NCBI GenBank assembly: GCA_029260055.1
Contig: JAJDDX010000098.1
Location: forward strand, 4,962 to 68,961
Direction of reading: 5' to 3'
Source: Phycisphaerae bacterium
GTDB taxonomy: Bacteria; Planctomycetota; Phycisphaerae; UBA1845
DNA length: 64,000 nt
Part shown: positions 4,795 through 18,640 of the stretch, piece after piece
How the letters are laid out: every line of letters starts with the position of its first letter
Numbering within the stretch: position 1 is the first letter of the stretch
The notes under the pieces: generated by a model
Databases searched by the model: none
The model's input: the letters and a program-made list of their open reading frames with translations, nothing else
Told to the model about the DNA's origin: nothing
Position numbers and translations under genes: made by a program

Positions 4795-5958
4795 CTACAG
4801 ACGCCGGCGCGAAGCGGTTCGCTGACCCGAAACCTGAGCGCTGTCGGCGATGAACGCCTCGTTGTTCGGGAACCGCTCCATCTTCGCCAGCAATTGCTCC
4901 ATCGCCTGGAGCGGGTCTCGTCCTACGACAGACCGTCGCAAGAGGTGCGAGGCTTCGAGAGCCTCCGGCGTGAGAAGCAACTCCTCCTTGCGAGTGCCCG
5001 ACGGGTTGAGATCGATCGCGGGCCAAAGGCGACGGTTCGCCATCTCCCGCGACAGCATGATTTCCATGTTCCCAGTGCCCTTGAACTCGTTGAAGATGAC
5101 CTCGTCCATGCGGCTGCCCGTCTCGATCAGGGCCGACGCCATGATCGTCAGCGATCCGCCATTCTCGGCATTCCGCGCCGCGCCGAAAATCGACTTCGGC
5201 TCGGTCAGCGCTTTGATGTCGAGTCCGCCCGACATGATTCGGCCACCGCCGCGGATCCCCGCGTTGAACGCCCTTCCGAGTCGAGTGAGCGAATCCAGCA
5301 GGACAAAGACGTCGCGGCCTGTTTCGACGAGTCGCTTGGCCTTCTCGATCACGAGTCGCGCCAGCCTGATGTGGACGTCCACGTCCTTGTCATTGCTGCT
5401 GGCGATGACTTCGCCGTGCACCTTGCGACGCATGTCCGTGACTTCCTCGGGCCGCTCGTCGATGAGGAGGACGATCATGTACACGTCGGGGTAATTGGTA
5501 GCGACGGCTTGCGCCATTTGTTGCAGAAGGATCGTCTTGCCTGTCCGAGGCGGAGCCACGATCAGGCCGCGCTGCCCGAATCCGATGGGTGTCATGAGGT
5601 CGACCACGCGCATCGTCGCGGGGCCACCGGACGTCTCGAACACGATTTGACGGTCAGGATCGATGGCGGTGAGGGTATCGAACGGCTTGACGTCGAGATA
5701 GTCGGGTACGGACAGATCGCAGACGGCTTCGATCTTCTCGAGTTCGGTGGGTGCGTTGCGCGCCTTCCCGCTCTTTTGCCGGAGCGTGCCGGTCACGATT
5801 TCTCCGCCGCGCAAACCCGCCGCGCGACAAAGGGATGCGGGCACCATGACGTCCTGCCGGCTCACCGCGTAGTGAGTTTCCGCTGAGCGGAGGTGCCCTC
5901 CGCTCTTGGCTGCCGGCTCGAACGTGCCGGTGATCGTATCCTGCGTTTCCTCCGCCAT
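4795..5958 (-). CDS. rho: Transcription termination factor Rho (short N-terminus)
   Basis: PIGFGQRGLIVAPPRTGKT, LLIDERPEEVTD, LDSLTRLGRAFN, EFKGTGNMEI. Confidence 0.96.
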   Translation of the reverse strand: MAEETQDTITGTFEPAAKSGGHLRSAETHYAVSRQDVMVPASLCRAAGLRGGEIVTGTLRQKSGKARNAPTELEKIEAVCDLSVPDYLDVKPFDTLTAIDPDRQIVFETSGGPATMRVVDLMTPIGFGQRGLIVAPPRTGKTILLQQMAQAVATNYPDVYMIVLLIDERPEEVTDMRRKVHGEVIASSNDKDVDVHIRLARLVIEKAKRLVETGRDVFVLLDSLTRLGRAFNAGIRGGGRIMSGGLDIKALTEPKSIFGAARNAENGGSLTIMASALIETGSRMDEVIFNEFKGTGNMEIMLSREMANRRLWPAIDLNPSGTRKEELLLTPEALEASHLLRRSVVGRDPLQAMEQLLAKMERFPNNEAFIADSAQVSGQRTASRRRL

Positions 5959-6170: not shown

Positions 6171-6231
6171 ATATTTTTTTGAATTCTTCCAGCACAAACG
6201 GCTTGACATTCCAGGGCGAGTGTGACATTGT
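6171..6231 (+). promoter_or_regulatory. Putative sigma70-type promoter for the structured-RNA/small-ORF locus
   Basis: Perfect TTGACA at 6203-6208, preceded by an AT-rich tract (ATATTTTTTTGAATTCTT) that stands out in GC-rich DNA. The -10 element is imperfect (GACATT/CATTGT). Confidence 0.45.
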
Positions 6232-6248: not shown

Positions 6249-7090
6249 GGGAGGCCGGTTTCTATTGGCTTCCTGATGGCTGCGTTGTGTCGCTCGGGAG
6301 GCTCTGTCGTCTTCGACCGACGGACGCATTAGCACAAAAAACTAATGTTCGCAGCGCCGCTATCCCGATAAGGGCCTACGTGTTTCGGCTCGCTGGCGCG
6401 GAGTCGAAAGCCGTGGCGCGGGGAAGGTGATCTTTCCCCAGTGGGCTCGAAAGGGCTTGCGGCAACGACGCGATGTTGGCATAATCCCGCTGCCAAATCG
6501 CGGAAGGCTGGCTGACGTTCACGAGGTAAGGCGCGGAGAACCGAGTGACGCGGCACATTGGTGGCGGGAGACGCCCGGATCGAACCGGGCAGTATCCGAA
6601 GGCTTTCGTTTTTCGAATCATGTGTAATCGGAGTGCGGGGTGGAACCGCACTCATTAGCTAGGGAAGAATGGCCGGGCCTGTGTCCGGCCGTGGGTATGA
6701 CGATCATACGTTCGTTCGGGCGTCCCCGCCGAACGAGGTCGCAAACCGTTCAAGTGAAGGAGATCGATAGATGCGCAAGAAGACTCTGAAGAGCGCTGCG
6801 ATGGTCGTGACCACGGGCATGCTGTTCCATTCGCTGGGATGCCTGAACTTTGGTGGTTTGGCCAAGTGGGCCGGCCCGATCCTGTACGATGGCGCCCTGG
6901 ATGTCGCTTGGGAGTACATCTGGGACCAGGACGGCGTCTTCGACCTGTTCGAGGATGGCAACGTCGTCGCCGCTGAGTAGAAATGCTCGGCTGACAGAAG
7001 GGATCTCCTTACGATCCCTGCCTCATCACTTTGCCTCCCGGGCGCTAGCCTGAGAGACCGAGCGACTGAGGCGGAGCGTGATTAGCTCTT
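6249..7090 (+). ncRNA. Large structured RNA or structured UTRs enclosing a small ORF (unclassified)
   Basis: At least 12 local hairpins in 6249-6737, plus nested long-range helices to 6985-7066 (see findings). No match recognised to RNase P RNA, tmRNA or a known riboswitch. Confidence 0.5.
6771..6980 (+). CDS. Small (69 aa) protein with basic N-terminus, hydrophobic segment, lipobox-like SLGC and acidic/aromatic C-terminus
   Basis: Strong RBS GAAGGAG upstream, GC3-rich codon usage, followed by an intrinsic terminator. Confidence 0.8.
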   Translation: MRKKTLKSAAMVVTTGMLFHSLGCLNFGGLAKWAGPILYDGALDVAWEYIWDQDGVFDLFEDGNVVAAE

Positions 7091-7133
7091 AAAGGGCGCG
7101 GGTCGGTATCTGCCGACGCCGCGTCCTTTTTTT
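7091..7133 (+). terminator. Rho-independent terminator
   Basis: Stem AAAGGGCGCGG-GTCGGTA/TGCCGAC-G-CCGCGTCCTTT followed by T7. Confidence 0.85.
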
Positions 7134-7167: not shown

Positions 7168-8034
7168 TCAGAGGGGAAGGACGCGACTGATGACGGGTCG
7201 GTCGATCGTGCCGCCGATCTCGACACCACCCACTTCGGGATCATGGGGAAACGCGAGCAGCAGGCCCTCGTCCAGGCACCGGCGGTAGATCGCCCGCTTC
7301 TCGGTGATAGTCGTGAGCGGTTGCACGTCGTACGCCATGACCCACGCCGGAGGCAGATGCGCCTTGGTCGGCACGATATCACCAATGAAGATCAGCTTGG
7401 TGCCGCCGGAGCCGAATACCGGATGCAACTGGCACGGCGTGTGGCCGCTCGAAACAAACCACGCCCAGCCCTCGCCGGGCGGCGCGGGCGTGTCACCCTC
7501 GACGATCGCCAGTTGGTCCGAGTCCGAAAGCGCTGCGAAGTCCTCCGGTAGGAACGACGCCCGGTCCTTGAGATACGGCTCGCGGGCGTGATCGAGGTGG
7601 CGGCTATGGATCCAGTGCCGTGCCGTCGGATATCGCAGGCGGGTCGCCCCTCCCCGCTCGTCGGTCCATTCAGTCAACCCGCCGTTGTGGTCGAAGTGCA
7701 GGTGCGTGATCACCACGTCGGTCACATCTTCGGGGCCAAGACCGGCCGCCCTGAGGGCGTTCGGGACAGCGTCCGCGTCGAACTCGATGGCGAACCGCTC
7801 GGCCTTGTCCGGTGCCCATTTCGTGCCGCAGCCGGTGTCCGCCAGGATCACGCGTTTGCTCGATCGGTCGATCGCGAGCAATGTACGCGTCGTAAGCAGA
7901 ATGCGGTGTTGATCGTCCGCCGCCGCCTCGCGCTGCCAGAGTACACGCGGGACCACGCCGAACATGGCGCCGCCGTCCAGCCGGACCGAGCCGTTGACCA
8001 CGGACCGGATCTCCCAATCGTCGATCGTCAGCAT
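7168..8034 (-). CDS. MBL-fold metallo-hydrolase (YtnP/AHL-lactonase-like)
   Basis: LDGGAMFGVVP, THLHFDHNGG, GHTP, AYDVQP, FPHDP. Confidence 0.92.
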   Translation of the reverse strand: MLTIDDWEIRSVVNGSVRLDGGAMFGVVPRVLWQREAAADDQHRILLTTRTLLAIDRSSKRVILADTGCGTKWAPDKAERFAIEFDADAVPNALRAAGLGPEDVTDVVITHLHFDHNGGLTEWTDERGGATRLRYPTARHWIHSRHLDHAREPYLKDRASFLPEDFAALSDSDQLAIVEGDTPAPPGEGWAWFVSSGHTPCQLHPVFGSGGTKLIFIGDIVPTKAHLPPAWVMAYDVQPLTTITEKRAIYRRCLDEGLLLAFPHDPEVGGVEIGGTIDRPVISRVLPL

Positions 8035-8190
8035 GTTCGACACCCTACCGCGCATGCCGTCGGCCCGCACGGGGTGCGTCCCACCACCTGGACCGCCATG
8101 CTGTTGAACGGCGACACCGGCACGGCTACAGTCTTACCGGTCTGCGCCGCGGGCCTGCGAGCGGCCCGGAACCTGGAGTAAGCCATCACG

Positions 8191-9258: not shown

Positions 9259-9332
<74 letters not shown>

Positions 9333-18463: not shown

Positions 18464-18640
18464 GCTGGAGGGTCGCCGCTCCGGCCTGGGGCCGGTACGG
18501 ACGCCTCTGGGGGCCGTCAGTGACGGCCAGGTCCCATGCAGTGGGTGTTGCAGGCAACGGGTCAGGCTGGAAACAGAGCAGCCCACCTGTTTCATTCAGG
18601 TGCCGTGGATCGCCTGGCCGTCACTGACGGCCTCCGGGGC
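18464..18640 (+). ncRNA. ffs: Signal recognition particle RNA
   Basis: Helix-8 motif GGGTCAGG-CTG-GAAA-CAG-AGCAG-CCC (18559-18584) at the tip of a long stem (18503-18531 pairing with 18613-18640); classic position upstream of dnaX-ybaB-recR. Ends approximate. Confidence 0.88.

Follow-up and report, generated by a model that had tools for sequence, protein, structure and literature searches.

A predicted three-promoter leader with GGCGCGG-capped hairpins ahead of a conserved small lipoprotein-like gene in Phycisphaerae

What kind of genetic unit is formed by a 69-aa open reading frame (ORF) and the long, densely folded RNA that surrounds it? The question arises in a Phycisphaerae genome, in a stretch of 64,000 nucleotides that is called the window here and supplies all coordinates unless another contig is named. 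A sequence-only reading of this DNA had proposed that the leader and the 3′ flank clamp around the ORF and place it in the loop of one large RNA, possibly of an undescribed system. The ORF and its immediate surroundings are laid out as follows.

4795..5958, minus strand: divergent neighbour, a Rho-family termination factor of 387 aa (Pfam Rho_RNA_bind and ATP-synt_ab)
6757..6762, plus strand: Shine-Dalgarno sequence AAGGAG, predicted to be fairly open
6771..6980, plus strand: conserved small protein of 69 aa (profile search and sequence pattern)
7091..7133, plus strand: intrinsic terminator, with a fourth GGCGCGG (7095-7101) in its 5′ arm
7168..8070, minus strand: convergent neighbour, a metallo-beta-lactamase-fold (MBL) protein (Pfam Lactamase_B)

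The unit is stand-alone, as had been proposed, with its own TTGACA upstream (located at 6203-6208), the ORF at 6771-6980 on the plus strand, a terminator and intact rho and MBL genes on either side. The terminator is borne out by a fold of -29.3 kcal/mol, though a pattern scan does not list it. Among 81 homologous loci, 37 have rho upstream in divergent orientation, a figure capped by the length of the loci, and 36 have the MBL-fold gene. Counts of neighbours, terminators, hairpin tips, tandem gaps, small ORFs and intergenic hits were made with a crude gene caller of local design. The Rho protein itself is short, with little sequence ahead of its RNA-binding domain, and a sigma70-like site on the minus strand (6167-6140) stands back to back with the first promoter of the unit. 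The only Rfam matches in the 64-kb window are a tRNA (9259-9332) and a small SRP RNA (18525-18622).

The clamp was said to consist of four long-range helices.

6289-6297 with 7058-7066; 6505-6512 with 7044-7051; 6523-6531 with 7029-7037; 6541-6546 with 6985-6990

These complementarities are present letter for letter, but in the ensemble of the segment 6239-7140 none has a pairing probability above 0.001, and a fold constrained to contain all four is 17 kcal/mol less stable (-405.1 versus -422.2). Better local partners exist for the clamp arms, such as 6541-6554 for 6284-6297. As a nested set, the four do not clearly exceed chance, since 29% of 300 shuffles contain four nested helices of 8 bp or more. 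Conservation points the same way: the closest homologue (L092, 83% amino acid identity) retains 5/9, 4/8, 4/9 and 5/6 pairs, and a pair of genomes of the same genus retain 6/9, 3/8, 3/9, 1/6 and 6/9, 1/8, 4/9, 2/6. Across 31 homologues, cognate leaders and 3′ flanks show no excess of complementarity over swapped ones (best helix z -0.5, four-helix chains z -1.2).

Several signals nevertheless favour the clamp. The window's own leader ranks first and second of 31 for complementarity to its 3′ flank, two runs of at least 9 bp made of Watson-Crick pairs only occur between leader and 3′ flank in just 0.7% of shuffles, a 12-bp helix absent from the earlier list (6291-6302 with 7033-7044) retains 9/12 pairs in L092, and more than 15 expected leader-3′ pairs are found in 7 of the 16 homologues folded, a count taken without a control set. 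They are read as chance in GC-rich RNA because no register is common to the homologues. The RNA does fold well by prediction: the segment 6200-7140 is more stable than 20 dinucleotide shuffles (z -6.2), and the folding z of homologous leaders is -2 or lower in 12 of 16 (16 of the 31 were folded). All 12 leader hairpins of the sequence-only reading can form when each is folded alone, the weakest being 6327-6347 (-2.2 kcal/mol) and 6695-6709 (-3.2 kcal/mol). Some fall on predicted promoter DNA, namely 6327-6347 on the A-tract and -35 of promoter P2, and 6441-6460 with 6469-6502 on the -35 and -10 of P3. A further pairing, 6485-6494 with 6560-6569, exists in the letters and is partly retained in three close homologues (8/10, 7/10 and 6/10), but cognate partners beat swapped ones in only 13 of 27 loci; its 5′ side coincides with the P3 -10 and discriminator.

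Given its low pairing probability, its breakage in three close homologues and the lack of a family-wide excess, the end clamp was rejected, and the placement of the ORF in the loop of a clamped large RNA is not supported. A single large RNA with flanks clamped round the ORF, be it a self-splicing intron, a large ncRNA or an end-paired type I toxin mRNA, is very improbable. Besides the broken helices, it is opposed by internal promoters and tandem ORF arrays, which are ill-suited to a fixed clamp, and by the failure to find the hallmarks of either named class. For introns, the search for a domain-V-like pattern of group I/II introns was negative, no Rfam intron is matched, and neither catalytic-core motifs nor an interrupted host gene were found, the flanking rho and MBL genes being intact. 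For type I toxins, an antisense promoter is seen in 3 of 31 loci only, at unrelated places. The unit does share with hok, aapA and fst mRNAs a small hydrophobic ORF, a long structured transcript and its own promoter and terminator. It differs from them in having no conserved 5′-3′ helix and no conserved antisense promoter, in its open Shine-Dalgarno sequence, in its acidic, lipoprotein-like product, in conserved synteny and in the core-like character of the gene. In local folds of 28 homologues, the mean unpaired probability of the Shine-Dalgarno sequence is 0.52, versus 0.35 in the nearby leader, and it falls below 0.3 in 4 of 28. A low folding z-score with nested helices in GC-rich DNA can thus be the mark of a promoter stack and not of one ncRNA.

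Rfam 15, searched at gathering and E-value thresholds, yields nothing real in the unit and 0 matches in 15 homologous loci. The earlier statement that the RNA is not RNase P RNA, tmRNA, 6S RNA or a named riboswitch agrees with this covariance-model search, which has no match in the unit. What remains of the proposed undescribed system is a long structured RNA without an Rfam match, but the conserved novelty resides in a promoter stack and in hairpins capped by GGCGCGG. No description of this gene, promoter or word was found in the portions of the literature available to the search, and supplementary motif tables, which lie beyond those portions, may hold the element.

Sequence comparison indicates that the ORF is a real conserved gene. 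A 16-sequence profile finds it in 86 of 100 genomes of its Phycisphaerae family, and an order-level profile search recovers it in 30 of 34 members of the family, in 3 of the 4 genomes of a sister family and in 3 among the other 112 genomes, all of these last being weak matches. The 122 representatives at 50% identity are nearly all stand-alone small proteins, and 43 of the 45 named records with relatives of the ORF belong to Phycisphaerae or Planctomycetota. The layout comprises a basic N-terminus, a hydrophobic stretch, G-C at 23-24, a helix and an acidic DxDxVFDLF tail. Among 121 sequences, the Cys column is 99% conserved, 110 have [GAS]C at a lipobox-like site, and the mature part has a median net charge of -6. 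This pattern makes a lipoprotein resembling signal peptidase II substrates the likely product. The commonest lipobox of the family is FGG-C, which departs from the textbook lipobox. No match to Pfam, NCBIfam or a PDB fold was found for the 69-aa protein; its AlphaFold model (pLDDT 67) has three helices and no PDB match, and its Atlas matches are only Planctomycetota clusters. Entericidin A/B and other small lipoproteins are comparable in having a signal peptide, a Cys, a short helix and, in some genomes, tandem paralogues; tandem copies of the present ORF likewise stand behind one leader in some genomes. The family differs from Entericidin A/B in the missing Pfam/NCBIfam match, in its acidic mature part with DxDxVFDLF and in the lack of toxin-antidote evidence.

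One subfamily (L055, L098, L102, L111-L113, L116, L123, L125-L127) has a C-terminal extension with a conserved QDDFGTG..YDDRF...R.EP. About ten other ORFs of 44-82 aa, outside the family profile, carry a signal, G-C, a helix and often an acidic tail; in the genome of the window (G000) they lie on contigs C20, C29, C62, C85, C144, C172, C273, C339, C432 and C437, and in L018, L034, L105, L108 and L110 such ORFs adjoin the family gene. They possibly form, with the family, a wider superfamily of small Phycisphaerae lipoproteins.

The leader ahead of this gene is, as far as its motifs tell, a stack of three predicted promoters.

6203..6231, plus strand: P1, predicted sigma70-type, TTGACA-17-CATTGT with a TG extension; predicted start ~6238
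6249..6274, plus strand: first predicted hairpin of the P1 transcript, -15.3 kcal/mol, sequence not conserved
6336..6370, plus strand: P2, predicted sigma28-like, A-tract and CTAATG(6342-6347)-17-CCGATA(6365-6370); predicted start ~6378
6457..6485, plus strand: P3, predicted sigma70-type, TTGCGG-17-CATAAT with a TG extension; predicted start ~6492

From P1, P2 and P3, the predicted leaders measure about 530, 390 and 280 nt. The P1 pattern TTGACA-17-nAnnnT occurs in 31 of 51 mutually unalignable leaders; in L092, P1 is 93% identical and the next 100 nt are 62% identical. P3, as TTGCnn-16/17-CATAAT, is found in 27 of 57 P2-bearing loci, 85-133 nt past P2 and mostly at 108-120, and among the 51 independent leaders it appears 15 times in sense and 0 times in antisense. 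The P2 pattern is YTMAYG-17-CCGATA, whose spacer is 17 in 38 of 51 independent leaders and 13-16 or 18-21 in 0; among loci fetched afterwards, 9 of 12 have it at spacer 17 and none at another spacing. Little sequence is conserved within the spacer (no column above 0.42 bits), and a T/A initiator-like bias lies 7-8 nt downstream. The P2 of the window is the top-scoring site in the genome (31.6 versus 20.9), and genome matches at spacer 17 are intergenic in 19 of 23 cases, compared with 9/23, 6/16, 16/31 and 12/28 at other spacers. The alternative that YTMAYG-N17-CCGATA is an RNA motif was discarded, its spacer having a constant length but almost no sequence constraint.

Sigma28 elements are given as -10 GCCGATAA and -35 TCTAAAG, with a spacer of 15 in the Pseudomonas fliC promoter, in the excerpted text of PMC12784957. 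P2 matches the sigma28 -10 element (G)CCGATAA; the -35 CTAAAG at canonical spacing is not matched, since P2 has YTMAYG at 17 and not at 15-16. As a variant in both -35 and spacer, P2 is therefore classed as sigma28-like only. It shares with FliA/SigD/WhiG promoters the -10 CCGATA(A), a -35, CTAATG, that resembles TCTAAAG, a spacer free of sequence constraint and an A-tract upstream, and differs from them in its spacer of 17, versus 15 in Pseudomonas fliC and 16 ahead of two of the six flagellin-domain genes of this genome, and in a target that is not a known motility gene. Three FliA/WhiG-like sigmas are encoded here (G000 C92:23030-23695, C163:30826-31494 and C320:5204-5863); at least two are found in 27 of 29 related genomes, and two are conserved family-wide. 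Five genomes of one genus have a third FliA/WhiG-like sigma and lack the P2 motif at this gene. Other intergenic 17-bp sigma28-like sites lie on G000 C98, C132, C322/C2, C106 and C217, one ahead of a ParA-like gene and one ahead of a methyltransferase-like gene, and a small regulon of such sites is possible.

RNA data from relatives are consistent with transcription of the unit. Of 24 runs in 17 studies, at word shares of 0.14-0.21, four were examined, as contigs only, and in 4/4 the contigs cover leader and ORF (6324-6505 and 6583-6973). Over these segments, which stop short of the 3′ flank, no splice joints were found. Two relatives' contigs cross P2, consistent with use of P1, in a material that may include DNA and gives neither level nor strand. 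Coverage is lacking over the P1 region and the 3′ flank, where divergence is greatest, and absence there proves nothing.

Downstream of P2 and P3, a single heptamer recurs in the leader.

6383..6409, plus strand: predicted hairpin at the 5′ end of the P2 transcript, with GGCGCGG box 1 (6395-6401) as its cap
6415..6421, plus strand: GGCGCGG box 2, 20 nt past box 1, not at a tip in the predicted fold
6509..6557, plus strand: predicted hairpin near the beginning of the P3 transcript, with GGCGCGG box 3 (6530-6536) as its cap

GGCGCGG is the commonest word of the leaders, with 140 sense and 2 antisense sites in 64,325 nt, against about 20 expected per strand from genome frequency or 28 from a third-order model. 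After kin are collapsed, the counts are 86 and 3, and in loci fetched afterwards 10 and 2. The word is at a hairpin tip in 66 of 144 cases, compared with 56/387 for words of the same composition and 72/500 for coding sites. Its flanks pair better with their cognate than with swapped partners at 25 of 29 first boxes and at 105 of 144 boxes in all (controls 72/140), or 64 of 85 once kin are collapsed. Stem sequences are unrelated and the loop register varies between sites, while single-letter variants of the word are mostly at background for tip position. In hairpin 6383-6409, the 3′ arm varies in same-genus genomes with pairing kept; box 3 is altered in L092. Boxes also have a characteristic place: 52% of 122 lie 5-60 nt past a predicted start (21% at random), with clusters at +16 to +19 and +32 to +40 from the P2 start and at about +42 from the P3 start, and a distance of 60 nt or less from the ATG is seen for just 2 of 130. 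The box-enclosing stem begins at most 4 nt from the predicted P2 start in 21 of 29 cases. Eleven of 73 leaders are without any box.

Conventional covariation analysis captures little of this. RNAalifold returns 0 consensus pairs for the box hairpin because box-stem registers vary; covariation in a fixed register is weak, since 12 of 500 shuffles do as well and shifted registers give similar scores. A covariance model generalizes poorly, with 1 match below E 0.05 in 13 new loci, and in its genome-wide search nothing but the window falls below E 1. The drift of the stem register would hide such a loop word from standard covariation pipelines.

A genome-wide regulon of box hairpins, first hinted at by many exported proteins, is not supported by an unbiased test. 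Signal-like N-termini are encoded by 8 of 18 genes behind box hairpins versus 804 of 4062, and in tandem gaps throughout the genome the word stands at hairpin tips 7 times in sense and 9 in antisense, outside the top 25 words. It is not conserved ahead of rplK (3/22) or rplM (3/23), the denominators being the readable loci of 30 each, and the same test at other small lipobox ORFs gave no support. The GGCGCGG element looks specific to this gene on these counts; as it is enriched neither genome-wide nor before rplK/rplM, a dedicated binder would have few targets. GGCGCGG was also rejected as a sigma54 -24 element (at most 0.08 bits at positions 10-13 after the box, and no -12 TTGC; the excerpt of PMC12316311 bears on sigma54 only) and, for want of a downstream element, as the -35 of another promoter.

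The remaining parts of the transcript are predicted to form local structures.

6671..6747, plus strand: conserved GCCGGG/CCCGGC hairpin (6671-6690) followed by a long stem whose end, GRTCGCAAACC, directly precedes the ribosome-binding site
6981..7090, plus strand: 3′ flank, predicted local folds with hairpins near 6999-7019 and 7020-7074

For hairpin 6671-6690, the RNAalifold consensus of 14 selected sequences contains 6 pairs, one of which shows a double-sided change; the long stem appears in single-sequence folds and is absent from the consensus fold. In the 3′ flank, double-sided changes between the window and L092 turn A-U into G-C, C-G into U-G and G-U into C-G. The terminator stem has a conserved base, RCGCGG/CCGCGY, with CCGCG in 20 of 71 family terminators versus 17 of 474 others of this genome. 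This base resembles the leader box and its complement.

The locus thus combines a conserved ORF, promoter motifs of fixed spacing and a strand-specific heptamer at the tips of variable-stem hairpins. It is read here, with a probability of roughly 0.58, as a gene for a lipid-anchored small protein served by three stacked promoters, with nested mRNAs whose GGCGCGG-capped hairpins would be bound by a putative RNA-binding protein that protects their 5′ ends. P1 and P3 would be read by sigma70 and P2 by one of the two conserved FliA/WhiG-type sigmas. Such a gene for a strongly expressed envelope protein would be fed by two sigma70 promoters and one alternative-sigma promoter, and with both promoter types combined, its output would therefore continue across growth or motility states. 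The first hairpin past the P2 start, and often one past the P3 start, would display GGCGCGG in or at its loop. The putative protein would recognise the unpaired word, much as CsrA recognises GGA in loops, and its binding would shield the 5′ end or the nascent untranslated RNA. Translation would not be blocked, given how far the boxes are from the ribosome-binding site. The other end would be guarded by local 3′ hairpins and the strong terminator, and the product is presumed to be exported and acylated at Cys24.

Other functions can be assigned to the box. RNA polymerase has to cross several hundred untranslated bases here, and the boxes could be sites of loading or pausing for an elongation factor of the NusG/RfaH type or for another anti-Rho device. 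They are strand-specific and promoter-proximal, the leaders are rich in G (skew 0.18), a second NusG-family gene is present in the genome, and rho is the conserved divergent neighbour. The RfaH ops site is GGCGGTAG, and the box starts like it. However, the NusG paralogue is itself preceded by the canonical GGCGGTAG and not by the box, no conserved pause-type base follows the box (at most 0.13 bits), and the unit is short and closed by a strong terminator, all of which leaves this explanation unlikely. Much the same must be said of GGCGCGG as a DNA site for a transcription factor tuning the stacked promoters, with hairpins incidental to it. In 9 of 23 close pairs, the spacing between adjacent boxes is 19-21 bp, or two helical turns, and the boxes lie between P2 and P3, yet the flanks pair specifically with their own partners, box position follows the upstream start more closely than the downstream -35, and the sense strand folds better than the antisense at 79 of 85 sites, a weak argument in that G-rich strands fold better.

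Pairing of the loops with RNA, through GCGC/CGCG loop-loop kissing, a small-RNA seed or the 3′ arm of the terminator, is quite unlikely. It would draw on the two palindromic 4-mers of the word and on the CCGCG end of the terminators (20/71 versus 17/474), but only 4 bp are available for kissing, the non-pairing outer Gs are conserved as well, the loop register differs from site to site, and the single-letter variants are mostly at background for tip position.

The reading as a leader bound by a 5′-protecting protein has parallels. CsrA recognises GGA in loops, and its binding close to the 5′ end protects flhDC mRNA (excerpts of PMC7652899 and PMC13443453), and the 5′ stem-loop of ompA is a 5′-terminal mRNA stabilizer (an excerpt of PMC7509114, citing Emory 1992). 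As in CsrA/RsmA leaders and CsrB/RsmZ-type RNAs, several copies of a short word, often paired, occupy loops of variable stems, and the pattern of a repeated word at the tips of such stems is indeed matched. The leader differs from CsrA targets in that the conserved loop word is GGCGCGG, not GGA or ANGGA, and almost never lies at the Shine-Dalgarno sequence. By analogy, it would work like a CsrA-type multi-site leader, and it falls outside that class on the word. Stable envelope-protein mRNAs such as ompA and lpp also have a short gene for an exported protein, a predicted 5′-terminal stem-loop, 3′ hairpins and a strong terminator; the present unit differs from them in its three promoters, its leaders of 280-530 nt and its sequence-specific loop word. 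A bolder version is doubtful: a putative undescribed RNA-binding regulator would read GGCGCGG, and the abundant multi-site leader, switched on in part by a non-flagellar sigma28 paralogue with its own 17-bp promoter, would be at once the stabilized mRNA of a major envelope lipoprotein and a sponge titrating that regulator.

The locus matters in several respects. It contains a near-universal small lipoprotein-like family, apparently undescribed, in a widespread uncultured planctomycete family; an apparently undescribed sigma28-type promoter variant with a 17-bp spacer, possibly the one used by the second conserved FliA/WhiG paralogue; and a repeated RNA loop word that also appears undescribed. 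If a dedicated protein reads GGCGCGG, it would represent a new bacterial post-transcriptional system, and the 27-nt hairpin 6383-6409 is a ready bait for the putative binder. The candidate binders considered in the genome (one CsrA, four RRM proteins and one NusG paralogue) show no telling link to the box, and none is linked to the locus; the single CsrA lies in a flagellin cluster. Ahead of the NusG/RfaH-like paralogue (G000 C84:23787-24381), the ops-like GGCGGTAG is situated ~125 nt upstream of the predicted start codon. Three near-identical glycine-tailed RRM genes (G000 C469:2668-2977, C469:5413-5830 and C422 near 12300) share an upstream CCCTGAAAG and have their own promoters and terminators.
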